64,000 nt of DNA from Bacillota bacterium (GTDB lineage Bacteria > Bacillota > DTU025), in assembly GCA_019136685.1 (NCBI GenBank), contig JAGVTS010000124.1, positions 17,460 through 81,459 on the forward strand, read 5' to 3'. Position numbers and translations under genes: made by a program. The notes beneath the pieces are model-generated. The model made no database searches. It saw only the letters and a program-made list of their open reading frames with translations, and was not told where the DNA came from. How positions within the stretch are numbered: position 1 is the stretch's first letter; the number at the start of each line of letters is the position of its first letter. Positions 83-18,359 of the stretch are shown in pieces.

Positions 83-544
83 ATGGAACACGGCTGCGCC
101 GCGTACTTGGCCCCTGTCATGCTGGGGGGCATGGATTACGACAAACACTCATGGGTTGCGCAGATACAAGGCTGGCTGGCATCCCTTCCCGGCGACTCTC
201 AGCTACCGGCAGGGGCATTCTGCGAGTTGATGCGCGAAGCTTTTGAGGCTGACAGAGCTGGGATGTACCTGAAAAGCCTCTCGATTCTCAGCAAGGCTGA
301 GCGACTCCTGGCCGATTGCGACGCGCTCGATTCCTTCGTCTACGCGATGGGGGGCACTCCGCGCAGGATTCCGACTGATCCCGGCGGCGGCCCGCGGAAC
401 ACGCAACCCGGCCCCACCGGGGGAGGCGGCACGAGCTCGGGTAACCCGTGCGACTCCATGAATGATGATACGTGTTCGCAGTGTATCGGCGGCTTGTGCC
501 TTTACGGCATTCTGAATGCAATATGCGGAGGCGGGTGCTCATAA
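83..544 (+). CDS. hypothetical small protein (153 aa) with Gly-rich linker and Cys-rich hydrophobic C-terminal tail
   Basis: Complete ORF with ATG at 83, in-frame stop at 77-79 and GGAGG about 14 nt upstream. C-terminus reads ...GGGPRNTQPGPTGGGGTSSGNPCDSMNDDTCSQCIGGLCLYGILNAICGGGCS, holding 7 of the protein's 11 Cys in the last ~35 aa. First gene of a co-directional coupled operon. No family recognised. Confidence 0.45.
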   Translation: MEHGCAAYLAPVMLGGMDYDKHSWVAQIQGWLASLPGDSQLPAGAFCELMREAFEADRAGMYLKSLSILSKAERLLADCDALDSFVYAMGGTPRRIPTDPGGGPRNTQPGPTGGGGTSSGNPCDSMNDDTCSQCIGGLCLYGILNAICGGGCS

Positions 545-571: not shown

Positions 572-1225
572 ATGGGAAGGAGAATCGTTGTGGAGTTGCC
601 CGATCCGGTCCCGATCACGCAGGATTTCGATGAACCCATGCACGTGCCCGAGCCCGAATCCGACCCAGGCCAGGATGCCTGCAGCGCAGGCACTACCGCG
701 GACATTGGCGCCGTCCAAAGCAAACTGGACCAGCTCATCGCCATGTTCGCCGACAAGATCCAGTACGATGACCAGAAGGAAAAGGCCTTCGCCAGGCTGT
801 ATGATGAACTCGACTCTTTCAAGCGTGACTTTGTGGAGCGCCGGATGAAAGAGGCCTACACCGATCTGATTCTGCTTTACGACAACATTAAGAACTATAC
901 CGGCGACGACGACGTTATGAGGGAAGAAGGCGCTCTCGCGCGAAGGTACCTTGGCTATGTAATGGAAGAACTCACCGAGGTGCTGGCACGGCGTGGGATA
1001 GAACCCATTGTTGCGGGCCCAGGCGTGGGCCCGGCGCAGTGCGGTTTTGATCCGCAGCTTCAGCGAGCCATACGCACGGTGCCCGCCGAATGCCACGGCG
1101 AGGATGGATGCGTGGTCCGCGTGGTGAAGGACGGGTTTACAAAGGACGGTAAGGTGTTCCGCCCACAATCGGTGATCGTGGCACGCTGGACGGAGCCTCC
1201 GAGCCCTCGAGGAGGCGATGTGTAG
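572..1225 (+). CDS. GrpE-like nucleotide exchange factor
   Basis: C-terminal region matches GrpE architecture: dimerisation helix (YLGYVMEELTEVLARRGIEPI), FDPQLQRA (GrpE FDPxxHxA) and beta-domain VVRVVKDGFTKDGKVFRPQSVIVA (GrpE V..V.Q.GY....RPA.V.V). Stop TAG overlaps the GTG start of the next gene (taGTG). Alternative start GTG at 590 follows GGAAGGAG. Confidence 0.65.
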   Translation: MGRRIVVELPDPVPITQDFDEPMHVPEPESDPGQDACSAGTTADIGAVQSKLDQLIAMFADKIQYDDQKEKAFARLYDELDSFKRDFVERRMKEAYTDLILLYDNIKNYTGDDDVMREEGALARRYLGYVMEELTEVLARRGIEPIVAGPGVGPAQCGFDPQLQRAIRTVPAECHGEDGCVVRVVKDGFTKDGKVFRPQSVIVARWTEPPSPRGGDV

Positions 1226-2757
1226 TGTCTCGTGCAATTGGAATCGATCTTGGCACTACGTTTTCGGCTATCGCTGTGCTCAACGAGTTTGGGAAGGCCG
1301 AGATAATCCCGAACGCGGAAGGAGAGCGCGTCACTCCATCTGTTGCGTACTTCGGCGACGATGACTCTGTGGTGGTCGGTACAGTCGCCAAGAATTCTGC
1401 CGTGAGCGATCCGTACAATGTGGTAGAGTTCATCAAACGGCAGATGGGCAATGCCGACTACGTGTTCACCCACGGCGATGCCGAATACGGCCCGGAACAG
1501 ATTTCGGCGCTCATACTCAAGAAGCTCAAGCAAGACGCTGAAAGGCTGCTCGGCGAGGCGGTCAACGATGCGGTGATCACGGTGCCAGCCTACTTCGACG
1601 ATGCACGCAGGCGCGCCACGATAAACGCGGGCAAGATAGCCGGCCTTAACGTGCTCCGCATAATCAATGAGCCCACGGCGGCGGCTTTGGCCTACGGGCT
1701 TACCAATGCGTCAGAGCAGCGGATAATGGTATATGACCTGGGAGGCGGCACGTTCGACGTGACCGTCATGGACGTGGCCAGAGGCGAGATCACGGTCGTC
1801 GCCACTGACGGCGACCACATGCTGGGCGGCAATGACTTCGACGACCAGATAATGCTCTACGTGAACGATGCCTTCAAACGGGAACACGGAGTCGACCTAC
1901 TTCGGGAGGTGGAGGTCCAGCAAGATCTGCGTCAGCGCGCGGAGGCAGCCAAGAAGACGCTGTCTTCTCGTCCATCGGCCAAGATCAGCATGAGCGCCTC
2001 CGGTAGGCGGCTGACGGTCGAACTTACGCGGGAGCAATTCGAACAGATGACCGGTCACCTTCTCGAGCGCACCAAGATGCTTGTCGAGTCGGTGATGAGC
2101 GAGGCCAAAACGGGATGGGGCCAGGTTGACACCGTGCTCTTGGTGGGAGGATCCACGCGCATGCCCATGGTGCCCCAGATGATCGAGCGCATGTCGGGCA
2201 GGGCCCCGAGCCGGGCCATCAACCCCGACGAGGCCGTGGCCATGGGCGCAGCGGTGCAGGCCGGCATCCTCATGGCCCAGAAGGGCGACGCCGCGATACT
2301 TGCTACCGCTGAAGGGCGCAGGCTTGCCAATACTCGAGTGACTGATGTGACGAGCCACGCTTTTGGGATCGTGTTGATGGATGATCGTACGAAAACCGAA
2401 TACAACCAGGTGATGATCGCCAAGAACACGCCGATTCCCCACGAGGTGCATGACCATTTCTATACGATTTCCAACAACCAGGAGCGCGTCAGGTTCGTAG
2501 TGCTTCAGGGGCAGGACCGCGATCCGGCCAACTGCAATACCATCGGCGAGACTGAACTCGAGTTCGACAGGCCCAAACCCAGGGGCTATCCTGTGCGGGT
2601 GACGTACCAGTATGACGCCAACATGGTGATGCACTGCTATATGGAGGATGAAAAGACCGGTCGCATTGCCGAGTTACATATTTCGCAGTCCGGCAGGATG
2701 AGCGACCGCGAAGTTGAGGCCAAGAAGCGGCTCATGGACCGGGTAAAGGTAGACTGA
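1225..2757 (+). CDS. Hsp70-family ATPase, lid-less paralog A (nucleotide-binding domain plus beta substrate-binding domain only, 510 aa)
   Basis: Hsp70 signatures present: IDLGTTFSA, ITVPAYFDD, NEPTAAALAYG, DLGGGTFDV, LLVGGSTRMP, NPDEAVAMGAA, plus SBD-beta motifs IAKNTPIP and PRGYPVRVTYQYDAN. Ends where the alpha-helical lid would begin; no EEVD tail. Translationally coupled to upstream GrpE-like gene. Confidence 0.8.
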   Translation: MSRAIGIDLGTTFSAIAVLNEFGKAEIIPNAEGERVTPSVAYFGDDDSVVVGTVAKNSAVSDPYNVVEFIKRQMGNADYVFTHGDAEYGPEQISALILKKLKQDAERLLGEAVNDAVITVPAYFDDARRRATINAGKIAGLNVLRIINEPTAAALAYGLTNASEQRIMVYDLGGGTFDVTVMDVARGEITVVATDGDHMLGGNDFDDQIMLYVNDAFKREHGVDLLREVEVQQDLRQRAEAAKKTLSSRPSAKISMSASGRRLTVELTREQFEQMTGHLLERTKMLVESVMSEAKTGWGQVDTVLLVGGSTRMPMVPQMIERMSGRAPSRAINPDEAVAMGAAVQAGILMAQKGDAAILATAEGRRLANTRVTDVTSHAFGIVLMDDRTKTEYNQVMIAKNTPIPHEVHDHFYTISNNQERVRFVVLQGQDRDPANCNTIGETELEFDRPKPRGYPVRVTYQYDANMVMHCYMEDEKTGRIAELHISQSGRMSDREVEAKKRLMDRVKVD

Positions 2758-2780: not shown

Positions 2781-3488
2781 ATGGCAAAGGGCGCTATACA
2801 CAGAGTCTGGGCCGACTACGACGTGACTTACGGCGGGCGTCGGGGCATCATGATTCACGCCTCAATGGCAGTTACCGAACGCAGAAGAGCTCAGTCGGAG
2901 CAGGTACTAGTGATCTACTGGTTCTACTACACCGACGGCAAGCCGGTGCCCGGCGTTTCCAGCGAATTCACCGATAGCGGCGGGAACGCCTGCGCCTATG
3001 AGAGTGTTGATACTCCATATCCATCTACAGGCTACGATGATTTCTCGGTGTTCGTTCCCTATGAGGCGCTGAGCCATCAAGGGTCCGGGTCGTTCAGCGC
3101 GTATGCCAACGCAGCCTTGTTCGAAGGCGACACCGTCATAGCCTGGGCGCCTAGGGTGCTGTCGTTCACGTTGACTATGCAGGACGTTCATGAGCACGAG
3201 AAGGGCGGGCAAACGGGGCCCCAACGCACAACCAGGACCACCACTACTACGACTAGCCCGGATACGGGCGGCTCACGCGGTTTCGGCGGCCAGTCGCCTG
3301 CACAAAGATACCGTCGGATGTTCGGCATACCGCCCGGCGCAAGCCCGGCTCAGATCAAGCAGATTTTGGACCGCGAGTATCAGAAGTACAGAGCGCGGGT
3401 GAATAGCCCTGACCTTTCGGCCAGGCAGGAGGCTGACCGAATGATTGTGGAGATAGGCAAGGCCCGGCAGGCGTTGCTGCCGCACTAG
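2781..3488 (+). CDS. hypothetical protein with C-terminal J-domain-like region (SPD in place of HPD)
   Basis: RBS GGAGCGGGAG lies before the ATG. C-terminal ~60 aa (RYRRMFGIPPGASPAQIKQILDREYQKYRARVNSPDLSARQEADRMIVEIGKARQALL) aligns by eye to the J-domain helix II - loop - helix III pattern, with SPD at the HPD position. N-terminal ~140 aa is an unrecognised domain, followed by a Thr-rich linker (RTTRTTTTTTSPD). Lies between two Hsp70 paralogs. Confidence 0.5.
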   Translation: MAKGAIHRVWADYDVTYGGRRGIMIHASMAVTERRRAQSEQVLVIYWFYYTDGKPVPGVSSEFTDSGGNACAYESVDTPYPSTGYDDFSVFVPYEALSHQGSGSFSAYANAALFEGDTVIAWAPRVLSFTLTMQDVHEHEKGGQTGPQRTTRTTTTTTSPDTGGSRGFGGQSPAQRYRRMFGIPPGASPAQIKQILDREYQKYRARVNSPDLSARQEADRMIVEIGKARQALLPH

Positions 3489-3505: not shown

Positions 3506-5038
3506 ATGAAGGCAGTTGGAATCGACCTTGGCACTACGTTTTCGGCTTTGGCTGTGCTGAACGATTATGGCAATCCCGAAATCGTGCCGAACAGGGAGGG
3601 CGAGCGCATCACGCCGTCGGTGGCGCTGTTCGATGCGGAGAACCAGGTCACTGTGGGGGCGATTGCCAAGAACACCGCGGTAAGCGATCCGGAGAACGTG
3701 GTCGAGTTCATCAAGAGGCAGATGGGCAACCCGGACTTCGTTTTCGTCCACAGCGGCAGGGAGTTCCGCCCGGAAGACATCTCTGCGATGATCATCAAAA
3801 AGCTGAAGGCCGATGCCGAGACGCTTCTCGGCGCCGAGCTTCCCAGCGCAGTAATAACAGTGCCGGCCTATTTCGACGACGCCCGCAGGCAGGCTACCAT
3901 GAATGCGGGAAGAATCGCTGGGTTCAACGTGCTCGGGATAGTGAACGAACCTACAGCGGCGGCGCTGGCCTACGGCATGAGCAACCCCGATGTTCGTCAG
4001 CGGATCCTCGTGTACGACTTGGGCGGCGGCACCTTCGACGTGACGCTTATGGAAGTGACGGAGGGCAAGATCCGCGTGCTTGCCACCGACGGCGACCATC
4101 AGCTGGGCGGCAAGGACTTTGACGACAAGATAATCATGTACTGCAACGACGAGTTCAAGCGCGAGCACGGCATCGACCTTCTTGACGACCTTGAGGCTCT
4201 GCAGGACTTGCGCCAGCGGGCCGAGTCGGCCAAGAAGACTCTCTCGTCCAGAGACTCAGCCAAGATCACCATAAGCGCCCAGGGAGCGAGGCTCACTGTA
4301 GAGATGGCCCGCAAGCAGTTCGAGGAGATGACCGCAGAGTTGCTTGTACGTTCGGAAATGCTCCTGGATGCGGTGATGGGGGCGGCGGAACTAGGGTGGG
4401 CCGATGTCGATCAGGTGCTCCTGGTCGGGGGCATGACTCGCATGCCGGCGGTTATGGAGATGATTCGCAGGGTGAGCGGTAAGGAGCCCACTCTATCAGT
4501 CAACCCAGACGAAGCAATCGCCCTGGGGGCAGCCATATATGCCGGCATCATACTGGCCGGTCGGGGCGATCCTGAGGTGGTATTGAGCGAAGCAGGGCGC
4601 CGGCTGCGCGATACCGTAATCGAGGACGTCACGAGCCACAGCTACGGTGTGCTGCTTGTCGACTCCAAAACAGGGAGCGACATCAATGAGATAATGATCG
4701 CCAAGAACTCCCCCATCCCGGCCGCGCGGACCGCCACGTACTACGTACATGAAGATGGGCAATCGTGCGTGGAACTCGTGGTGCTGCAGGGCGAAGATAG
4801 AAACCCGGCCAACTGCAATGAGATCGGCAGGGTGGTGTTGCCGCTCGGCGGCTCGAAACCCCGCAATTACCCCATAGAAGTAACCTACGAGTACGACGTC
4901 AACATGATAATGCATGCGACCATCAAGGATCCGCAGACGGGGGCCCAAAAGTCGCTCCAGATTACGCAGCAAGGACGGCTGACCAACGCAGAGGTTGAGG
5001 AAAAGCGGGAGACCATGCAAGAAGTCGAGGTAGTTTAA
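3506..5038 (+). CDS. Hsp70-family ATPase, lid-less paralog B (510 aa)
   Basis: Same length as and colinear with paralog A, roughly two-thirds identical by eye. Same Hsp70 motifs: IDLGTTFSA, DLGGGTFDV, LLVGGMTRMP, NPDEAIALGAA, IAKNSPIP, PRNYPIEVTYEYDVN. RBS GGGGGAGG upstream. Stop TAA overlaps the ATG of the next gene (TAATG). Confidence 0.8.
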   Translation: MKAVGIDLGTTFSALAVLNDYGNPEIVPNREGERITPSVALFDAENQVTVGAIAKNTAVSDPENVVEFIKRQMGNPDFVFVHSGREFRPEDISAMIIKKLKADAETLLGAELPSAVITVPAYFDDARRQATMNAGRIAGFNVLGIVNEPTAAALAYGMSNPDVRQRILVYDLGGGTFDVTLMEVTEGKIRVLATDGDHQLGGKDFDDKIIMYCNDEFKREHGIDLLDDLEALQDLRQRAESAKKTLSSRDSAKITISAQGARLTVEMARKQFEEMTAELLVRSEMLLDAVMGAAELGWADVDQVLLVGGMTRMPAVMEMIRRVSGKEPTLSVNPDEAIALGAAIYAGIILAGRGDPEVVLSEAGRRLRDTVIEDVTSHSYGVLLVDSKTGSDINEIMIAKNSPIPAARTATYYVHEDGQSCVELVVLQGEDRNPANCNEIGRVVLPLGGSKPRNYPIEVTYEYDVNMIMHATIKDPQTGAQKSLQITQQGRLTNAEVEEKRETMQEVEVV

Positions 5039-6183
5039 TGGAGGCAGGGGCAGGGACGGAGCGGGGCGCACGTACCCGGGCGCTTTACGAGCAACTGCTG
5101 GCGCCCGTGGCCCGGCAAGTCGACGCGGAACTGACGAATGAAGGGCACAACCTTCCGGCTGAACTGCGCGACATGTACGACTACGCTGTCGGCGGCGGTA
5201 TGAGATTCAGGCCGTGCCTGATGTACCTGGCGTACCTTGTGTGTAGTGCGGGCATGGGCGGGGAGTGCGGGCGTGATGGAGGCGATGGCTGCGGCAGCTG
5301 CATTGGCCTCGATAACCTGATTCAGCTTGCGTCAGCTGTGGAGTTGCTCCACAAAGCGTCGTTGGTTCACGACGACCTCATCGACGGCGACACTCTTCGC
5401 AGGGGGCGGCAGTCGTTTCACGAGGCATTCGGGAGCGAGCGCGCCGTAGTAATGGGTGACTTGCTAGTGGCAATGGCTCACGATGTGGTTGAGCGGATGC
5501 GTTCGGTCTTGCCGACCGGAGTGTACTCCCAAATCCGCTCCCGGTTCAACAAGGCCCATATCGACCTGTGCCGAGGTGAGTTGCTGGAGTTGGTCGCTTC
5601 GCTTTGCGAGCGCGCTCTGGCACGCGATTACGTGGATAGGGTGATCGAAGGAAAGACCGCGTCGCTGATGGAGCAGTCGATGGCCATGGGGGCGATCATC
5701 GCGGGCGCGCCCGCGGCTCGTGTGGATGCCTTGGCACGCTACGGACGGTGCATGGGGTTCGTGTTCCAGACTATCAATGATATAAACAACCTGACAGGGT
5801 TCGACCTAGGCGTCAAGGGGCAGGCCATGACAGACCTGGCGCTGGGCCGTGTGGGATACCCTGTTCTGGGCCTTGCGATGATCGCGGGCGCTGAAGAGAC
5901 TGGCCTCTTTGCACGGGCCCCGGGGATTAGGCGAGTTGAGGGCTCGGGCGACGCCCTGCGTGAGCTGGTTCAGGGGGGGCAGCTGTGCGTGTGGCTCGAG
6001 GGGATAATATGCGAATATGCGGGCCGAGCGCGACAGGCGCTGGAGGCCCTGCCGGAATGTGGCGCGCGCGACGCCCTGGACGCGATAGGACGCGAGATGT
6101 TCGAATCGTGGTTCTGGAATCCCGAAGCGCGCGTCGATAGCCTGGGAGGCGGATGCAGTGAAGAGTCTCCGCCCGCTAACTGA
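5038..6183 (+). CDS. polyprenyl synthetase (trans-isoprenyl diphosphate synthase) family protein with degenerate second Asp-rich motif
   Basis: GGGMRFRP (IPPS GGKRxRP), intact first Asp-rich motif LVHDDLIDGDTLRRGRQ, GKTASL. Second motif reads FQTINDINNL where FQxxDDxxD is expected. Cys/Gly-rich insertion (GGECGRDGGDGCGSCIG) before the first motif. Coupled to the upstream Hsp70 gene. Confidence 0.65.
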   Translation: MEAGAGTERGARTRALYEQLLAPVARQVDAELTNEGHNLPAELRDMYDYAVGGGMRFRPCLMYLAYLVCSAGMGGECGRDGGDGCGSCIGLDNLIQLASAVELLHKASLVHDDLIDGDTLRRGRQSFHEAFGSERAVVMGDLLVAMAHDVVERMRSVLPTGVYSQIRSRFNKAHIDLCRGELLELVASLCERALARDYVDRVIEGKTASLMEQSMAMGAIIAGAPAARVDALARYGRCMGFVFQTINDINNLTGFDLGVKGQAMTDLALGRVGYPVLGLAMIAGAEETGLFARAPGIRRVEGSGDALRELVQGGQLCVWLEGIICEYAGRARQALEALPECGARDALDAIGREMFESWFWNPEARVDSLGGGCSEESPPAN

Positions 6184-6760
6184 GTCGGCCCTTGCCGCGG
6201 CTGTGTGTGTAGTTGTGTGGGCGCTGTCACTGGGTATTCCGGGGCTGGGGGGCTATGTGAGATACATGACGCCGAGCTTTATCGCGATCGTGGGAGCGCG
6301 CCACGGAGCGAGATGGTCGCTGGCGGCGTGCGCAGTGGCGAGCGCCGGTGTAGCGATCACGCTGGGGCCGACCCAGTTCCTCATCTGCCTCCTTCTGGGC
6401 GCCCCCATGGCGGTGCTTCTTCCCATGATGAACCGGCGCGCCAAGCCTGCGCCCTGGTGGGCGCTGACGTCAGTCATCTACGCCGTGGCCGTTACAGTTC
6501 TGGGCTGCGGGTTGGCCGCGCTCTACGGTGCAGGACTTCGCGACTATGGGTCGGCGACTGCGTCAGCCAACTACGCTGCTTTGGGCGGCATGTGGGCTCG
6601 GCTAGGCGTGGAGCGGAGCGAGCTTGCCGCGTTCGCCGGCCGATCAGCGTGGGTCATCGTCCCGGGAGTCGGCGTCGTCAGCGGAGTCATGATGTACATG
6701 ATCAACGTAGTACCGTATAGAATCGGCCTCAGAACCCTCGACCGGACGCGCCGCCGGTAG
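6158..6760 (+). CDS. polytopic membrane protein, unknown function
   Basis: 200 aa, about 5 predicted hydrophobic helices, basic C-terminus. Overlaps the end of the preceding gene by 26 nt in another frame. Last gene of the co-directional block. Confidence 0.4.
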   Translation: MKSLRPLTESALAAAVCVVVWALSLGIPGLGGYVRYMTPSFIAIVGARHGARWSLAACAVASAGVAITLGPTQFLICLLLGAPMAVLLPMMNRRAKPAPWWALTSVIYAVAVTVLGCGLAALYGAGLRDYGSATASANYAALGGMWARLGVERSELAAFAGRSAWVIVPGVGVVSGVMMYMINVVPYRIGLRTLDRTRRR

Positions 6761-7238
6761 CGCCGGCCCTTGCGCCTCCGGCGGTCGCAGCCTGTGCAAA
6801 TGCCGATAGATCCACATCGGCAGATGATATCCGCACCATGGCTTGTCCAGGCTGAATAGTTATCCCCGCCATGTCCAGCGACCTTAGCGCCCCGCGGCTT
6901 GCCTGAACGAGATCGATCGTTATCACGCCGCGACCCAGGTAGCTTACGCCCTGGGGCAGGCGCGAGGAGATCCGGTTGATGAGCACATCCATAGGACCGG
7001 TTCCCAGCCCCATCGGACCGGATACACGCACTGTCAGGCTGGCGCCGCGCGCGGCGACCACCTCTACTCGGAAAGACGGATGAATGGGCACAGGCGCGCG
7101 GACGGTAGTGTCGACAACCACTACCCCTTGTTCGAATCTCAGACCCCTCACAACGAACTCGGGAGACGATGCAACGCTGGCCACGACCTGCTTCACTTCC
7201 CGATCGTCCACAGCAAGCACCAGCGACTCCATTAGCAT
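6729..7238 (-). CDS. hypothetical protein (possible PilZ-like beta-barrel protein)
   Basis: 169-aa ORF with reasonable protein-like composition. Weak resemblance to PilZ/YcgR-type domains (RxxxR ... D.S..G-like spacing). Not confidently assigned. Confidence 0.35.
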   Translation of the reverse strand: MLMESLVLAVDDREVKQVVASVASSPEFVVRGLRFEQGVVVVDTTVRAPVPIHPSFRVEVVAARGASLTVRVSGPMGLGTGPMDVLINRISSRLPQGVSYLGRGVITIDLVQASRGALRSLDMAGITIQPGQAMVRISSADVDLSAFAQAATAGGARAGATGGASGRGF

Positions 7239-7245
7239 CTCAAGC

Positions 7246-8250
7246 TCACTCCTTTCGGGTTCTCGCGCTCAGCAGGCGCCTTACCCGGGCGTCCAGCCCG
7301 AGCAGGATGATGTTCTCTACTATGGGGCGATAGCGGTGCAGCGTCAGCTGCGACAACGCGTTGCGCGCTTCCACATTGCATCGGGCGATCACGTACGACA
7401 GGGCATCTCCCGTGCCGCGCGAGAGCTCAGCGGAATCTTGTTCTGCCATCATGCAGGCGCGCAGGCCGTTAAAAGCCCCGCGTCTCACGTCGCGCGGTAA
7501 GTCCTCCAGGCAGTCGCCTAGATAGACCATGCGACCCACGGCTCGGCCCAGGCGCGCCAAGGATACACAACCCTCATCCAGGCCGGCCAGAATGCCTGTG
7601 TACGCCAACACGTGCGCAAGCCCGTCGGCCGTGGGCGCGGTGAGTTCGTCGAACGTGATACTTCCCGGCGCGGCGCTTGCCTCAGCTTCCAGCTCGGCCA
7701 GGCGATCGTCTGCCTGCAGCAGCGGGGCGATATCGAAAGAGCGCTCAGCGAGAACATGCCGGGCCTTGGCAAACTGTCGGCGGCCCATGGCTCTGGCCGG
7801 GCGGGCTAGGAGCGATCCGTCGCGCACCGAGTCCAGGCTCTTCAGTTCTGCCATGCACACTGTGAGCGCAGCGCCCAGCGACATGAAGTCCTCATGCTCA
7901 CTGATAATGGCGAACCTGCGGAATGCCGACACAGGGCAGAAAGTCCTCCGAAAAGACGGGTCGGGGTCTGCCTGAGCCGACATGAGCAGGACTAGCAAAG
8001 TAGACTCGAAATTGGTGAGCGCGCGGCAGAGTGTGCCGTACTCCCGTGCAAGCGCGAAACAAAGCCCACAGTAGTGGGCTGTGTAGTGATGGCTTTGCCT
8101 GAGTGTAAGGTCGAGCTTCTGAGGCCTTACATATCCAAACAACCGGGCACTCTCCCGCCGACGTGATCTGCTTCCCATCGAGAGTTTTCTCCCTGCCGAC
8201 CGCTTGTTCCTCCATAGTCGGCGGGATCCGGATGATAGAGCAAGAAGCAC
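7246..8250 (-). CDS. hypothetical protein with conserved Y-V-R-P ... HHYxxHYCGLC motif
   Basis: 334-aa ORF with N-terminal FGYVRPQKLDLTLRQSHHYTAHYCGLCFAL Cys/His motif, and a C-terminal region rich in regulatory-looking helices. Family not confidently recognised. Confidence 0.45.
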   Translation of the reverse strand: MLLALSSGSRRLWRNKRSAGRKLSMGSRSRRRESARLFGYVRPQKLDLTLRQSHHYTAHYCGLCFALAREYGTLCRALTNFESTLLVLLMSAQADPDPSFRRTFCPVSAFRRFAIISEHEDFMSLGAALTVCMAELKSLDSVRDGSLLARPARAMGRRQFAKARHVLAERSFDIAPLLQADDRLAELEAEASAAPGSITFDELTAPTADGLAHVLAYTGILAGLDEGCVSLARLGRAVGRMVYLGDCLEDLPRDVRRGAFNGLRACMMAEQDSAELSRGTGDALSYVIARCNVEARNALSQLTLHRYRPIVENIILLGLDARVRRLLSARTRKE

Positions 8251-8260
8251 CTGGGCATGA

Positions 8261-9409
8261 CTAGCCGTTCGGCCCGGTGGTCGAGGCGGGCGAGCCTGGA
8301 GGAGGCGCAGGGCACACCAGGATCGTGCCGGGGGCTATTGTCCTGGGATCCGTTATCCCGTTCATGGCGAGTATCTCGCGCATCCTTTCGTCAGTAGCCC
8401 TGCCGTAGAGGCGTTTGGCGATCACCGCCACCGACTCGCCCGGCGCCACTGTTACGGTTACAGTGCCGGGCGCGCCGGGCTCGGCAGTGGGCCGCGAGGC
8501 ATTGCCCTGGGCAGTGGCTTGCTGGGCCTGAGGGGTGCGCTGCGGCGTAGCCGGCAACTTAGCCTCAGGCGTAACCTTGGGCCGTGGTTCTGCCTGTGGC
8601 TCAGGCCCGGCCTGCAGCTGGGGATGAGCCTGCAACTCAGCTCGGGGCTCAGGCTGTGGTTGGGCTGCGAGCTGTTCTACCCGGCTGCGCGGCGTCCAAA
8701 TCTGTGCCGCCAGAGCGATTGCGGCGATGATCAGGGCGATGGAAGCGAGGCGCAGGGCCAGTGATGTGTCGTTGCTCGGGCGCTGGAGCAGCCAGCGCAA
8801 TCTGCGCAGCCAGGTCATGGGCGAGAGCTTGGCACACTGGCGCAGTCCGTCACCGGCTTGCCTGCGCGACGCCTGGGCCGCCGACCCAGACAGCGACTGC
8901 CCTGAGGATTCGCCGACGGGATCAAACATGTAGTACCCTGGGAATGGCAGCAGCGTTTCTCCGTCCATGTAGAAGAACGACGCCTGTTGCCTCACTGCAT
9001 CGACGATCAGCGCAACCCCTGCTCCCAAAGGTGAGAGCGACTTATGCACCATGGCGTCCTCTTCGGACGCCGACACGCCCGAGCCAGAGTGTGTGTGGAA
9101 CCATCCTATGATCTCTCTGCCTGCGTGTGAGGCCTTGGCCTCCCGGCGCAGGTTGTCAGACAGGGCAATTAGGAGTCCCGGAGGTTCTGCCCTGAGCGGG
9201 ACGTCCGGCAACTCCACTGTGTCGGACACCATGATGATGATTCCATCACTATCACTGGTCAGCCTGCCCACGAGAAGCCCGGCGCGGTCAGCCTGCTGTG
9301 AGCCTGCACTGCCCGTCTTGCCCAGTAGGCCTTCGATTACTGCACGACTCGCCATCACCCTGGACGGCATGCCCCGGGTCTGTACCCTCTCGATCAATGC
9401 GATCACCAT
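8261..9409 (-). CDS. JAB/MPN (JAMM) metalloprotease domain protein with TM segment and C-terminal LysM domain
   Basis: JAMM motif HTHSGSGVSASEED (H-x-H-x7-S-xx-D). Central hydrophobic helix (LASIALIIAAIALAAQIW). Pro/Gln/Ala-rich linker. C-terminal LysM-like GESVAVIAKRLYG...ILAMNGITDPRTIAPGTILVCP. Confidence 0.7.
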   Translation of the reverse strand: MVIALIERVQTRGMPSRVMASRAVIEGLLGKTGSAGSQQADRAGLLVGRLTSDSDGIIIMVSDTVELPDVPLRAEPPGLLIALSDNLRREAKASHAGREIIGWFHTHSGSGVSASEEDAMVHKSLSPLGAGVALIVDAVRQQASFFYMDGETLLPFPGYYMFDPVGESSGQSLSGSAAQASRRQAGDGLRQCAKLSPMTWLRRLRWLLQRPSNDTSLALRLASIALIIAAIALAAQIWTPRSRVEQLAAQPQPEPRAELQAHPQLQAGPEPQAEPRPKVTPEAKLPATPQRTPQAQQATAQGNASRPTAEPGAPGTVTVTVAPGESVAVIAKRLYGRATDERMREILAMNGITDPRTIAPGTILVCPAPPPGSPASTTGPNG

Positions 9410-13619: not shown

Positions 13620-15650
13620 GTGCCTGATTTCCAGCTCAAGTCGGACTTCACTCCGACGGGAGATCAGCCTAGGGCCATAGATGAGCTCGTTCAGGGCGTG
13701 CTCTCCGGCATGCGGGGGCAGGTGCTTCTGGGCGTAACGGGCAGCGGCAAGACATTTACCATGGCCAACGTGATCATGCGTCTGGCCCGCCCTGCGCTGG
13801 TCATTGCGCACAACAAGACGCTCGCGGCGCAGCTGGCTGCGGAGTTTCGAGAGTTCTTCCCGAATAACGCAGTCCACTATTTCGTCAGCTACTACGACTA
13901 CTACCAGCCGGAGGCGTATATACCCCAGTCTGACACCTACATCGAGAAGGATGCGCAGATAAATGACGAGATTGATAGGATGAGGCACGCGGCCACAGCG
14001 GCACTGGTCGAGCGGCGCGATGTTGTCATCGTGGCCAGCGTGTCCTGCATATACGGGCTAGGCATGCCCGAGGAATATCTAAAGCAGGCGGTGGTTGTGA
14101 GGCGCGGCGAGGCGTCTGACCGCGACCGCCTTCTGCGCAAGTTGGTCGCCATTCAGTACAGCAGAAACGACATAGGAATTGCTCGCGGCACGTTCAGAGT
14201 GCGCGGCGATGTGGTGGAGATAGTCCCTGCGAGTGGAGAACAAGCGATCAGAATCGAGTTCTTTGGCGACGAAATCGACCGTATCACCGATGTTGACCTC
14301 ATAACCGGAGAAATGCTGGGCGAGAGGGAATCTGCTTTCATCTATCCAGCGTCTCACTGGGTGACCAACCAGGAGCGGATGCAGGCTGCGATCGCAACAA
14401 TTGAGGAAGAACTGGAGGCTAGGCTCGCGGAGTTGAAAGGCGCAGGCAAGCTCCTTGAAGCTCAGCGACTGGAGCAGCGCACTCGATTCGATCTGGAGAT
14501 GATGCAGGAGGTAGGGTACTGCTCGGGGATCGAGAACTACTCACGCCACCTGGCCGCGAGAGAGGCGGGCAGCGCTCCTGCGACTCTCATCGACTACTTC
14601 CCCGACGATTACCTCATGTTCATCGACGAGTCGCACGTGACGGTGCCTCAGATACGCGCGATGTACAATGGCGATCGGTCGCGCAAAGAGAGCCTTGTGG
14701 AATATGGTTTTAGGCTGCCCTCTGCCTACGATAATCGGCCCTTGCGTTTTGACGAGTTCACGCGGCGCGTCAACCAGGTGATCTTCGTATCCGCCACTCC
14801 GGCCGAATGGGAAAGATCCATGAGTGGTCAAGTAGTGGAGCAGGTCATACGCCCGACCGGCCTGGTAGATCCGGCGGTTGAGCTCAAGCCCGTGCGGGGG
14901 CAGGTCGACGACTTGATAGGCCAGATCCGTCAGACGGCGGACTGCGGATACCGGACGTTGGTGACAACGCTCACCAAGAAGATGGCCGAGGACCTCACGG
15001 ACTACCTCCGCGAGCTGGGGATCAGAGTGAGGTATCTGCACTCTGAAATTGACACGTTGGAACGGATCGAGATACTCAGGGGGCTACGCCTGGGCGAGTT
15101 CGATGTTCTGGTGGGCATAAACCTGCTCCGCGAGGGTCTGGATCTGCCTGAGGTTGGGCTCGTGGCTATCCTCGACGCCGATAAAGAAGGGTTCCTGCGG
15201 TCGTCAACGTCTCTCATACAGACTATTGGCAGGGCCGCCCGGAATGTGGATGGACGCGTCATCATGTATGCCGATGAGGTCACAAGATCCATGCGCGAAG
15301 CCATAGGTGAAACTGACCGGCGTCGTGCCATACAGATAGCGCACAACAAGACGTGGGGTATCACCCCCGAGTCTATCAAGAAGGCAGTCCGCGACCTATC
15401 CGAGATACAGCGTGCCGCAGGCGCCGAGGGCACGCGCGCGACCGCGGCCCGAGGCGCGGCAGGCGCAATGGGCGGGGCTGACATAGGGGCTCTGCAGGAA
15501 GTCGAGGGGATGGACGAGCGAGAGCTCGCCAGGCTCATCAAGAACCTAGAAGAGCAGATGAAGAAGGCAGCCGGCCTGCTTGAGTTCGAGCGGGCGGCGG
15601 AAATACGGGATCGCATCAGAGATCTTAGGCGGAGGTTCGTCCAGCTTTGA
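13620..15650 (+). CDS. uvrB: excinuclease ABC subunit B
   Basis: GVTGSGKTF Walker A, DESH helicase motifs, C-terminal UVR domain ([19 protein letters not shown]). 676 aa, GTG start. Confidence 0.95.
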
Positions 15651-16885
15651 GCAAAGACAAGATTGTCATCCGAGGTGCGCGCGAGCACAACCTCAAGAAT
15701 ATCGATGTGGAGATTCCCCGCGACAAGCTGGTGGTAGTGACCGGCCTGTCGGGTTCGGGCAAGTCGTCGCTTGCCTTCGATACGATATATGCGGAGGGGC
15801 AGCGGCGCTACGTGGAATCGCTGTCAGCCTATGCGCGTCAGTTTCTGGGCCAGATGAACAAGCCGGACGTGGATTACATAGAGGGCTTGTCTCCTGCGAT
15901 CTCCATAGACCAAAAAGCGGCCGGCAGAAACCCGCGGTCCACCGTGGCCACGGTCACTGAGGTTTACGACTACATGAGGCTGCTGTACGCCCGAATAGGG
16001 GTACCTCACTGCCCCGAGTGCGGTCGCGAGATCACCCAGCAATCGGTAGATCAAATCGTCGACAGGATCATGGACATGCCGGAGGCGACACGCATTCAGG
16101 TATTGGGCCCGGTTGTCCGTGGTAAGAAGGGCGAGCACAAGAAGGTTCTCGACGATCTCAGGCGCGATGGGTTCGCTCGTGTACGGGTCAACGGAGAGGC
16201 ACGCGAACTCACCGACCAGATTGACCTGGAGCGCTACAAGACCCACAGCATAGAGGCTATTGTGGATAGGCTGATCGTAAGGCCCGGCATACAGCGCAGG
16301 TTGGCTGATTCGCTGGAAACGGCCTTGAAACTCGGAGGCGGCCTGGTACTGGTAGACGTGGTTGGCAGCGGCGATATCGTCTTTTCGGAGACGCTGGCCT
16401 GCCCTGACTGCGGGCTCAGTTTCGGGGAGTTGCAGCCCAGGCTGTTCTCGTTCAACAGCCCGTACGGCGCGTGCCCGGCCTGCTCAGGCTTGGGCGTGAG
16501 CATTGAGTTCGACCCGGAGCTGATCTTCGATGCCGGCCGCTCCATTGACGACGGCGCTGTCTTGCCCTACAACCGAAACGGGGTCATAGCCGACTTCTAT
16601 GTCGGCCGGATACGTGAAGTGTCCCGGGTGAAGGGGATAGATACCACGGCCCCCTGGTCGTCGTTGCCTGAATGTGCCCGCGAGATGCTGAAACACGGGT
16701 GCGGAGAGGAACGGCGCGCGGCTAAAGCCGGAAGCGCTCGCCGTGACAGTTGGCGGGAAATCCATTGCCGAAGTCACCTCGATGTCCACGGCGGATGCTC
16801 TGGCCTACTTCGAGGGCTTCAGCCGGCAGCTTACAGAACGCGAAACGCTCATAGCCAAGCAAGTCTTGAAGGAAATTCGGGCTAG
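15647..16885 (+). CDS. uvrA: excinuclease ABC subunit A, N-terminal portion (gene disrupted by frameshift/deletion)
   Basis: [14 protein letters not shown] Walker A, Zn-finger CPECG...CPDCG...CPAC, LPYNRNG. UvrA identity is lost after ...LKHGCGEE around 16710 and the frame runs into non-UvrA sequence. Confidence 0.8.
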
Positions 16886-18359
16886 GTTAGGCTTTCTCAG
16901 TAACGTTGGGCTGGACTACCTCACCCTTGACCGTGAGGCGGGAACCTTGTCGGGCGGCGAGGCTCAGCGGATCAGGCTGGCCACCCAGATCGGGTCGAGC
17001 CTGGTAGGAGTGCTCTACATTCTGGACGAGCCGTCTATCGGGCTGCACCAGCGCGACAATGCACGATTGATCGCTACGCTGAAAGACCTGCGCGACTTGG
17101 GTAACACGCTCATTGTAGTGGAGCACGACGAGGAGACTATCAGATCGGCTGACTATGTAATCGATATAGGTCCGGGCGCCGGCGCCCATGGCGGCGAAGT
17201 GATCGCCGCCGGCACTGTCGGCGAAGTTGAGAGGAATCCGGCTTCCCTGACAGGGCAGTATCTTTCAGGCGCTCGAAGCATCCCTGTGCCGCCGGCGCGA
17301 AGAGAGCCCAACGGGAAGTCGCTGGTGATAGTGGGCGCTCGCGAGCATAACCTCAAGAACCTGGATGTGTCGATACCTCTGGGGTTGTTCGTGTGTGTGA
17401 CGGGCGTTTCCGGATCCGGGAAGAGCACTTTGATCAACGAGATACTCCACGCGCGGCTGGCGCGCGACCTGAACCGGGCGTATGCCAGGCCCGGCGCGCA
17501 CGACGACATACGGGGCACTGAGTACCTCGACAAGGTGATCGGCATCGACCAGTCGCCGATAGGGCGGACGCCAAGGTCCAACCCGGCCACCTACACCGGC
17601 GTGTTCGACTTCATCAGAGAGGTATTCGCGCGAACGACCGAGGCCAGGGCAAAAGGCTATAAGCCCGGCAGGTTCAGTTTCAACGTCAAGGGCGGCCGAT
17701 GTGAGGCGTGCCGAGGCGACGGCATTATCAAGATAGAGATGCATTTCCTACCCGACGTGTACGTTCCGTGCGAGGTGTGCAGGGGCGCACGGTACAACAG
17801 AGAGACCTTGGACGTGAAGTACAAGTCCAAGAGCATTGCAGACGTGCTTGCCATGAAGGTCGACGAGGCACTGGAATTCTTCTACAACATCCCGAGGATC
17901 CGGCGTAAGCTGCAGACTCTCTATGACGTCGGTCTCGGCTATATCCAGCTGGGCCAGCCGGCTACGACTCTCTCAGGGGGCGAAGCCCAGCGCGTGAAAC
18001 TCGCCACAGAGCTGTCGCGGCGCACCAATGGAAAGACACTGTATATACTGGATGAGCCCACTACTGGGCTGCACTTCGCGGACGTCGGTAAGCTCTTGGA
18101 GGTACTGCAGAAACTGGTAGACGGCGGCGATACCGTGCTGGTGATCGAGCACAATCTGGATGTCATCAAAACTGCTGACTACATCATAGACCTTGGCCCT
18201 GAAGGCGGCGACAAGGGCGGATGCTTGATCGCCGCGGGCACTCCGGAGCAAGTCGCAGCCACGCCCGGATCATACACCGGGCAATTCCTGACTAGGATTC
18301 TGCCGACTGAGGTGAAATCCGAGCACGGGCTGGAGGCGATGACCGGTGCCCTTGGATGA
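16743..18359 (+). CDS. uvrA: excinuclease ABC subunit A, C-terminal portion (continues in a different frame)
   Basis: [12 protein letters not shown]..., [17 protein letters not shown], second Walker [11 protein letters not shown], Zn-finger CEACRGDG...CEVCRGARY, second ABC signature [12 protein letters not shown]. Frame differs from the N-terminal part. Confidence 0.8.

Follow-up and report, generated by a model that had tools for sequence, protein, structure and literature searches.

In Escherichia coli, specialised Hsp70s are served by J-proteins of their own, HscC (YbeW) by DjlC and DjlB and HscA by HscB; to our knowledge, neither system carries its own GrpE. We analysed a 64,000-nucleotide stretch of DNA from a Bacillota bacterium (contig JAGVTS010000124.1, positions 17,460 to 81,459; hereafter the window, numbered from its first letter), in which a gene on the forward strand at 2781-3488 encodes a 235-residue protein ending in a J-like domain devoid of the canonical His-Pro-Asp (HPD) motif. 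We lean, with moderate confidence, towards reading this gene as that of a dedicated class-C-type J co-chaperone of an operon-encoded Hsp70 machine, which comprises its own GrpE and two lidless Hsp70 paralogues. HscA and HscC are described in a 2026 review (PMC13580251), which also presents the ribosome-associated complex, where the atypical lidless Hsp70 Ssz1 and the J-protein Zuotin act on Ssb, and reports that complex bacteria such as Myxococcus possess, besides the housekeeping DnaK, extra "DnaK derivatives" with shortened or deleted lids. Finally, GTPase-centric conflict systems of the GAP1-N2 theme, found in Firmicutes and Actinobacteria, combine an HSP70, a GrpE and a protein with fibronectin type III (FNIII) repeats fused to DnaJ or to tetratricopeptide repeats (TPR), at times with a second truncated Hsp70 (Kaur, Burroughs, Iyer and Aravind 2020, PMC7159879); a missing HPD is not discussed in that work.

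The window locus resembles the HscC-DjlC/DjlB and HscA-HscB systems in that Hsp70s with a short or missing lid are encoded beside a putatively dedicated J-type co-chaperone, that the part of this protein outside the J-domain would give target specificity, and that the J-domain does not occupy the N-terminal position of the class A/B DnaJ architecture. However, the J-proteins of the HscC and HscA systems have a canonical HPD and four helices, whereas the J-like protein has neither, its candidate target domain is an unrelated beta-sandwich, and two Hsp70 paralogues are present, one of them lacking an equivalent of DnaK R167. These Hsp70s moreover fall below the NCBIfam cut-offs (at best 371 versus 620 bits for HscA and 490 versus 648 for DnaK), form a clade of their own in a neighbour-joining tree and carry, throughout the subfamily, a 14-residue insertion in the interdomain linker compared with E. 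coli DnaK (…AEGRRLANT…, in the DVLLLD region); on these scores, membership of the HscA/HscC type was rejected. The GAP1-N2 theme is similar in joining an HSP70 and a GrpE with a DnaJ-type domain borne by a beta-sandwich or a TPR protein, and the window operon fits it, as do three TPR-fused relatives of our protein found beside GrpE and Hsp70 genes (P0153, L033 and L034). Here, by contrast, there is neither GTPase nor GAP1, the partners being a polyprenyl synthase, a DUF2232 protein and a DUF5685 protein, and the beta-sandwich is single-copy and matches no Pfam family, fibronectin type III included. Pfam scans found no GTPase in the neighbourhood and PADLOC gave no match, and assignment to this conflict system was rejected. 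The DnaK derivatives of the Myxococcus type are likewise additional lidless Hsp70 paralogues; they are seen as possible co-chaperones of DnaK, no dedicated J or GrpE partners being reported for them (PMC13580251). Because the lidless Hsp70s of the window come with a GrpE of their own and a J-like protein, an autonomous machine is suggested.

The gene starts with an ATG preceded by a Shine-Dalgarno-like purine-rich GGAG run, its coordinates include the stop codon, and the N-terminus is identical in position across all orthologues. Its parts are as follows (pLDDT, predicted local distance difference test):

2781-3488, forward strand: whole gene, coding for beta-sandwich, Thr-rich linker and J-like domain (open reading frame list, orthologues, purifying selection)
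2781-3185, forward strand: N-terminal beta-sandwich, residues 1-135 (AlphaFold2, exhaustive profile search)
3186-3290, forward strand: Thr/Gly-rich linker, predicted disordered, residues 136-170 (low pLDDT, threonine count)
3291-3485, forward strand: C-terminal J-like domain, residues 171-235 (AlphaFold2, family profile, hhalign)
3390-3398, forward strand: R204-A205-R206, opposite His-Pro-Asp in the alignment called register B below (phmmer, MAFFT, hhalign without the HPD clade)
3405-3413, forward strand: S209-P210-D211 in the turn that joins helix II to helix III, facing His-Pro-Asp in register A (codons AGC CCT GAC)

An earlier note on this DNA had proposed that the C-terminus is J-like, a proposal that a non-J fold (TerB-like or a generic coiled coil) would have overturned. 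Taken singly, the protein stays below threshold: its isolated last 65 residues score 13.4 bits against Pfam DnaJ (PF00226; E=0.086, cut-off 27.8) and phmmer against PDB J-domains returns E about 0.4. With a profile of eight C-terminal domains of the family, the top 21 PDB matches were all J-domains, nine of them below E=1e-3 and the best being T. thermophilus DnaJ2 (E=1.8e-6), while hhalign profile-profile comparison with four canonical J-domains gave 96-97% probability at E about 1e-9. Among distant relatives that share the helix III signature RQEAERM, L035 passes the Pfam DnaJ threshold (34.0 versus 27.8 bits) and can be aligned with solved J-domains from helix I to helix IV (E=6e-7); helix IV, typically D-P-x-x-R-x-x-Y-D, is present in L035, L035b and L038b. 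In the AlphaFold2 model of the whole protein (pLDDT 75-90 for the C-terminal block), helix I (173-181) packs on an antiparallel hairpin made of helix II (189-208), a turn (209-211) and helix III (212-232). Helix II is basic (K193, R198, K202, R204, R206) and helix IV is absent, the chain ending three residues past helix III. No His-Pro-Asp tripeptide occurs anywhere in the J-like domain, where Y203 precedes R-A-R-V-N-S-P-D. Among the textbook features of a J-domain, the protein therefore lacks a score above the Pfam threshold, the HPD and helix IV, while its hairpin fold, its basic helix II and its association with Hsp70 conform. Because of the profile and hhalign matches, together with a predicted hairpin that ends before helix IV, the C-terminal ~65 residues are a truncated J-domain homologue without a canonical HPD; the J-like call is thus upheld by the family profile and hhalign, and no alternative fold emerged from the profile searches.

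That this C-terminus is instead a generic helical hairpin or coiled coil, J-like by chance and unrelated to Hsp70, strikes us as hardly credible. The idea could draw on the lack of any Pfam or NCBIfam match for the full-length protein, on single-sequence E values of ~0.1-0.4 and on an ambiguous alignment register, but it conflicts with the exclusive J-domain matches of the profile and the hhalign probability, with the relatives that pass the Pfam DnaJ threshold and possess helix IV, and with the adjacency of Hsp70 and GrpE, which is invariant in three J-like architectures. Public annotation has already made the J-like call, orthologue HON41583.1 being labelled 'J domain-containing protein' at NCBI. 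This annotation is inconsistent (P0016 and P0018 clusters): orthologues with SPD or NPD bear that label and those carrying HPD are 'hypothetical protein'. The homologues came from two sources: a word-indexed protein search returned 15 close ones (68-100% identity), its profile versions adding almost solely known sequences, and an exhaustive profile search supplied the remote same-architecture proteins P0016, P0017, P0018 and P0022 and the TPR-like P0153. All genomes compared are uncultured metagenome-assembled genomes.

Codon comparison with six orthologues (dS up to 1.2) put the ratio of nonsynonymous to synonymous substitution rates (dN/dS) at 0.05-0.10 in the J-like domain, at 0.07-0.17 in the beta-sandwich and at 0.28-0.78 in the linker. 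The open reading frame is real and under purifying selection in both domains, the J-like domain being the most constrained part and nearly invariant among 13 orthologues. Since its dN/dS is the lowest in the protein, this domain is not a relic. It is accordingly very improbable that the domain is a decaying remnant, whose loss of the histidine was a loss of function and which leaves the protein to work through the beta-sandwich alone; the missing His of the window clade, the RPY of orthologue P0006 and the missing helix IV would fit such decay, but the strength of the constraint speaks against it, as does the fact that Ser is common to outgroup lineages (TPR type, L013 type) and hence old rather than a recent lesion.

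The claim that Ser-Pro-Asp replaces the catalytic HPD stood only in part. The absence of the canonical HPD is secure, whereas the placing of Ser at the His position is not: the alignment there is ambiguous, two registers scoring equally. Between Y203, the conserved aromatic residue that closes helix II (equivalent to DnaJ Y32), and E217-A218, the conserved Glu-Ala in helix III (E42-A43), the window protein has 13 residues and DnaJ 9. In register A, Y203 is aligned with Y32, a five-residue insertion RARVN follows, and S209-P210-D211 then face H33-P34-D35; this register was chosen by HMMER against T. thermophilus DnaJ2 and by hhalign when four HPD-clade sequences were included (score 51.8). In register B, which is ungapped at this point, Y203-R204-A205-R206-V207-N208 face Y32-H33-P34-D35-R36-N37, and N-S-P-D faces N37-Q-G-D40 before a four-residue insertion. 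Register B was the choice of phmmer (DNAJA3, DNAJB9), of MAFFT when E. coli DnaJ was aligned, and of hhalign after removal of the four HPD-clade sequences (score 51.5), and all alignments of distant relatives follow it. The AlphaFold model extends helices II and III by about one turn relative to DnaJ and places RAR within a helix and SPD at the tip of the hairpin, a predicted arrangement that would reconcile the two registers topologically. R204 is invariant in the eight-sequence family alignment, and the positions conserved across the broad family are [YW]-x-x-R-x-N and L-x-x-R-[QH]-E-A-[ED]-R rather than the turn.

The question of whether homologues retain SPD received a divided answer. Within the window clade (68-100% identity), 13 of 15 members have SPD, the two others showing RPY and a frameshifted C-terminus. 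However, a sister clade of ~40% identity and the same synteny has N-H-P-D at the same place, retained in members down to 48% identity, and the turn reads NPD in L011 (annotated Limnochordia), SAD in L013 and P0022, SPP or SPV in P0017 and P0100, and APT or AAT in distant stand-alone types; SPD recurs in the TPR-fused P0153, L033 and L034. Among the unique C-terminal domains collected, a sample biased by the search pattern, the turn motifs numbered NSPD 17, NHPD 10, NAPT 4, VSPP 2, NNPD 2, NSAD 2, NRPY 1, VSPV 1 and NAAT 1. The RPY case, orthologue P0006, has N-R-P-Y for N-S-P-D with the rest of the domain unchanged, which reflects either natural variation or a fault in the assembly. A neighbour-joining tree of the Hsp70s, built without bootstrap, pairs the SPD and HPD clades as sisters in each of the two paralogue subtrees and leaves L011, L013 and the TPR type outside them. 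Because of these outgroups, Ser, or at least 'not His', is probably the ancestral state as the more parsimonious solution, with His derived in one clade. A recent replacement of His by Ser, which the wording of the earlier note would imply, is thereby disfavoured. The HPD of the sister clade was also considered as proof that SPD equals HPD; this argument is weakened by the outgroup states and by the register switch of hhalign.

The genes that surround the J-like gene are the following:

83-544, forward strand: Cys-rich small protein of 153 residues, operon member and possible client (synteny; no Pfam family)
572-1225, forward strand: dedicated GrpE-like nucleotide exchange factor (Pfam GrpE E=1.2e-9, 38.5 bits versus a cut-off of 25.8)
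1225-2757, forward strand: Hsp70 paralogue 1, 510 residues, lidless (Pfam HSP70 E=6e-143, profile positions 1-509 of 599)
3506-5038, forward strand: Hsp70 paralogue 2, 510 residues, lidless (Pfam HSP70 E=7.3e-141)
2284-2352 and 4565-4633, forward strand: interdomain linkers of the two Hsp70s (alignment with E. coli DnaK)
5038-6183, forward strand: polyprenyl synthase (Pfam polyprenyl_synt E=2e-42)
6158-6760, forward strand: DUF2232 membrane protein, its reading frame overlapping that of the polyprenyl synthase (Pfam DUF2232 E=5.4e-9)
6729-7238, reverse strand: 169-residue hypothetical protein, convergent conserved neighbour (synteny)
7246-8250, reverse strand: DUF5685 protein, convergent conserved neighbour (Pfam DUF5685 E=2e-41, synteny)

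The co-directional genes are tightly packed, with several overlaps between stop and start (for instance the GrpE stop over the start of Hsp70 paralogue 1), and the J-like gene sits downstream of grpE, between the two Hsp70 genes. The paralogues are 60% identical and both retain the catalytic residues; since each chain ends shortly after the beta-basket, both are lidless. Their duplication predates the split between the SPD and HPD clades in the neighbour-joining tree. On the surface where helix II of DnaJ docks, the beta-hairpin of DnaK 206-213 is four residues shorter in this Hsp70 subfamily, and the position of DnaK E217 is Thr in paralogue 1 and Arg in paralogue 2. In the DnaJ-DnaK pair, Asp35 of the HPD forms a salt bridge with DnaK R167 and His33 contacts L391 of the linker (PMC13012618). 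The R167 position is held in paralogue 1 by Arg145 (nucleotides 1657-1659), being Arg or Lys in every lineage, and in paralogue 2 by Gly144 (nucleotides 3935-3937), the SPD clade showing Gly and the HPD clade Ala; L011 and L013, whose Hsp70 is single-copy, have Lys at this site. As Arg or Lys is kept in paralogue 1 and replaced by Gly or Ala in paralogue 2, paralogue 1 would be the likelier classical partner of the J-like domain. Systems with Asp-less J-like loops have Arg in both Hsp70s, and the Hsp70 beside the TPR-type SPD proteins has Gln. Paralogue 2, though Arg-less at this position, shows higher conservation than the J-like protein.

The complete gene order (Cys-rich protein, GrpE, Hsp70 paralogue 1, J-like protein, Hsp70 paralogue 2, polyprenyl synthase and DUF2232, with the hypothetical and DUF5685 genes running the other way) was found again in more than 20 loci (L001-L010, L012, L018-L026 and L028-L032) from genomes of uncultured Bacillota, Clostridia and Limnochordia and from metagenome contigs. 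The link to divergent Hsp70 paralogues proposed in the earlier note is therefore borne out by the order GrpE-Hsp70-gene-Hsp70, kept across L001-L013 and L018-L032, but not by any co-evolution at the R167 or linker contacts. As a genomic proxy for association with Hsp70, all orthologous loci recovered have flanking Hsp70s and a preceding grpE. L011 and L013 have a single Hsp70 yet keep the J-like gene, the synthase, DUF2232 and DUF5685, and the Cys-rich gene is syntenic in L005-L012, L025 and L030, lying directly upstream of the J-like gene in L011. The TPR-fused J-like type sits between GrpE and Hsp70 (L033, L034), and adjacency of GrpE and lidless Hsp70 is invariant in all three J-like architectures. 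GrpE, one or more lidless Hsp70s and an HPD-less J-like protein thus behave as a portable module, which in the window occupies a housekeeping-like setting; a literature search for a GrpE / lidless Hsp70 / J-like system found no paper describing it, and plasmid and phage searches returned nothing resembling it.

Other settings of the module were observed. In L035 (338-11634), L038 (213-11385) and L039, a stand-alone or TPR-tailed J-like protein (APT/AAT) follows GrpE and two lidless Hsp70s, and these J-like neighbourhoods contain a CHAT protease, a ~1000-residue HerA/DUF87-type ATPase and another weak DnaJ-like protein, which in one case bears a zinc ribbon, so that they look like conflict or defence islands. 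In L036 (4288-5209), a J-like domain (NAPT) is in frame with the first ~215 residues of an Hsp70 nucleotide-binding domain, which is either a J-like/Hsp70 fusion or an assembly frameshift. A defence role was also considered for the window locus itself and ruled out: PADLOC matched none of the operon proteins, Pfam scans of the neighbours found no GTPase, CHAT or HerA gene, and the neighbours are housekeeping genes (uvrABC, cdaA-glmM, alr, tsaBD).

The N-terminal domain, described beforehand as beta-rich and without a recognised family, proved to be so. AlphaFold2 folded it poorly from close homologues alone, and with a 59-sequence alignment it predicted a seven-stranded beta-sandwich (pLDDT 94.1, predicted TM-score (pTM) 0.87). 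No Pfam model matched this domain even at E<=1, nor did any NCBIfam model; Foldseek found no match in the PDB at E<=1e-3 (best TM 0.56, a Wzt carbohydrate-binding domain), and the CBM27 mannanase module, the best PDB profile match, was rejected as a relative for want of significance (E=0.064). By its profile, the domain is nevertheless far from an orphan. Of the 611 cluster representatives that the exhaustive search collected at E<=1e-3, 104 reached E<=1e-10; the core motif of the family (proteins P0021-P0164, for example P0026, P0030 and P0031) is W-x-D-x-N/D-V...G-M-x-I-H...F-x-P-Y-x-E-L. Most members have 2-4 tandem copies spaced by ~140 residues, many have signal-peptide-like N-termini, and the usual carriers are secreted or lipoprotein-like proteins. 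The Pfam domains found together with it in 114 representatives include BACON, caspase, trypsin-like peptidase, TIR, CarboxypepD_reg, PEGA, CsgG, LpoB and TPR, and fusion to subtilase was noted as well. In the J-like proteins the beta-sandwich is single-copy and begins at residue 1, and the protein is therefore placed in the cytoplasm; the L013/P0022 lineage has a Gly-zipper-like hydrophobic segment ahead of the beta-sandwich. The linker is Thr-rich, as had been noted (10 Thr in the 25 residues 141-165), and predicted to be disordered (pLDDT 26-44). Its length and sequence vary between orthologues, and orthologue P0013 has none.

On these grounds we propose the following mechanism. The beta-sandwich would bind a specific target, either a client such as the Cys-rich protein or a membrane or polyprenyl-linked component, and the disordered Thr-rich linker would give reach. 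The three-helix J-like domain may then dock on paralogue 1, the upstream Hsp70, in which the Arg is kept, contacting its nucleotide-binding domain and the region of its linker; docking would couple target binding to ATP hydrolysis, and GrpE would reset the Hsp70 cycle. Compared with DnaJ-DnaK, the docking geometry would be shifted, through a helix II ~5 residues longer with its conserved Arg-x-Arg and the Ser-Pro-Asp turn on one side, and through the shortened helix-II docking hairpin and the 14-residue linker insertion on the Hsp70 side. The J-domain homology, the architecture, the synteny, the purifying selection and the residue states of the Hsp70s are results of this analysis, whereas physical binding, the partner paralogue, ATPase stimulation and the identity of the target are what we infer here; the Cys-rich protein and the membrane setting with polyprenyl synthase and DUF2232 serve only as leads to a client.

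Several points weigh against a stimulating co-chaperone. The HPD is considered necessary for triggering Hsp70 and is kept by ~99% of natural J-domains (PMC13580251), and substitutions of DnaJ His33 abolish the stimulation of DnaK (PMC13012618). Searched at full length against Pfam, NCBIfam and the PDB (phmmer), the protein had no match, and it reaches no curated J-domain threshold. Register B would put a conserved Arg at the position of DnaJ Asp35, where it would repel the Arg of paralogue 1. No covariation was found between the turn (His, Ser or Asn, with or without Asp) and the R167 or linker positions of the Hsp70s. The turn is variable family-wide (SPD, HPD, NPD, SAD, SPP, SPV, APT, AAT), which argues against the classical HPD mechanism as the object of selection.

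These points leave room for a protein that binds Hsp70 stably without triggering hydrolysis and acts as an adaptor or regulator, tethering a lidless Hsp70 to the target of the beta-sandwich, or that forms, in a variant of the same idea, a fixed heterodimer with the Arg-less paralogue 2 acting on paralogue 1, in the manner of Ssz1-Zuotin or Pam16. We consider this, variant included, a tentative possibility. It agrees with the absence of a canonical HPD and with a turn that in some versions lacks Pro or Asp, the conserved positions lying elsewhere ([YW]-x-x-R-x-N and L-x-x-R-Q-E-A-E-R); with a paralogue 2 that lacks the R167 equivalent in every lineage and is still highly conserved and catalytically intact; with the placement of the J-like gene exactly between both paralogues; and with the proposal that bacterial DnaK derivatives are co-chaperones of other Hsp70s (PMC13580251). 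The ribosome-associated complex, which also unites an atypical lidless Hsp70, a J-type protein and a second Hsp70, would be a precedent for the joint action of paralogue 2 and the J-like protein on paralogue 1. But Zuotin has a canonical HPD and both Hsp70s of the window keep their catalytic residues, and the likeness would be functional only.

The mitochondrial import motor offers a second comparison, as the J-like Pam16 (Tim16) pairs there with Pam18 (Tim14), binding a J-protein with a canonical HPD. Like the protein studied here, Pam16 has a J-fold without His-Pro-Asp within an Hsp70 system, whereas the J-like protein of the window bears its own target-binding domain. A tblastn search with E. 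coli DnaJ revealed no other J-domain in the window, nor did Pfam scans of the operon genes, and the PDB profile matches were class A/B DnaJ domains with no Pam16-type chain among them. A degenerate J-protein of the Pam16 type, as once suggested for this gene, is therefore not supported: the HPD partner that such regulation requires is missing from window and operon, and the domain is not decaying. The single-Hsp70 lineages L011 and L013, which keep the J-like gene, further imply that the protein does not depend on a heterodimer of two paralogues; the HPD conserved at the turn of one clade suggests that classical stimulation is at least possible there; and a dedicated GrpE implies a full nucleotide cycle. 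Because of the sister-clade HPD, the dedicated GrpE and the single-Hsp70 lineages, we prefer the dedicated, stimulating co-chaperone to the adaptor.

A more far-reaching interpretation, which we judge unlikely as a whole, is that the J-like domain represents a separate, HPD-independent class of Hsp70 co-chaperones, defined by [YW]-x-x-R-x-N ... L-x-x-R-Q-E-A-E-R and the extended hairpin, which would have co-evolved with the monophyletic, remodelled lidless Hsp70s and would work with paralogue 2 in a fashion similar to the ribosome-associated complex. Its module would be portable, serving both in the housekeeping-like Bacillota operon and in conflict-type islands with CHAT and a HerA-like ATPase, and the Arg-less paralogue 2 together with the J-like protein would drive paralogue 1 on a membrane-linked or Cys-rich client.

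Several features appear to be undescribed: the lack of HPD in a domain under such strong constraint, the syntenic operons that naturally vary between H, S and N, the Arg-plus/Arg-minus pair of Hsp70s, the dedicated GrpE and the large beta-sandwich family without a Pfam model. The role of the bacterial lidless DnaK derivatives is an open question in the literature (PMC13580251), and as a test case the locus is compact, conserved and, it appears, autonomous: it unites a pair of lidless Hsp70s, of which one keeps and one lacks the Arg partner of the HPD Asp, with a GrpE of their own and a J-type partner that is under constraint yet has no canonical HPD, and natural H/S/N variants exist at one position. 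With five or six recombinant proteins, both J-domain signalling without HPD and the role of lidless Hsp70 pairs could be tested. The analysis also brought to light the beta-sandwich family, reused in caspase-, TIR- and protease-fused proteins.

The remainder of the window is ordinary chromosome (uvrABC, cdaA/ybbR/glmM, alr, tsaB/tsaD; GC 60.7%), and the Pfam scan of the neighbours returned GrpE, HSP70, polyprenyl_synt, DUF2232, DUF5685, JAB/LysM and AhpC. The DUF5685 and 169-residue proteins have no sequence relatives in the PDB, and the literature mention of DUF5685 was uninformative. The Cys-rich protein combines an ADQAGMYL motif with a middle part rich in Pro and Gly and, at its C-terminus, the Cys cluster C-x-Q-C-x2-G-x-C-x-Y-x-I-C...C-S; it could be a client of the Hsp70 system or, with a polyprenyl synthase nearby, a modified peptide. 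On the reverse strand at 8261-9409, a 382-residue protein with a weak JAB/MPN-like N-terminus, Pro/Gln-rich repeats and a C-terminal LysM is kept beside the cluster in the closest relatives. Between uvrB and uvrC, uvrA appears split into two overlapping open reading frames on the forward strand, the first (15647-16885, 412 residues) corresponding to the UvrA interaction and DNA-binding domains and the second (16743-18359, 538 residues) to the ABC ATPase part, which suggests a frameshift or a sequencing error.

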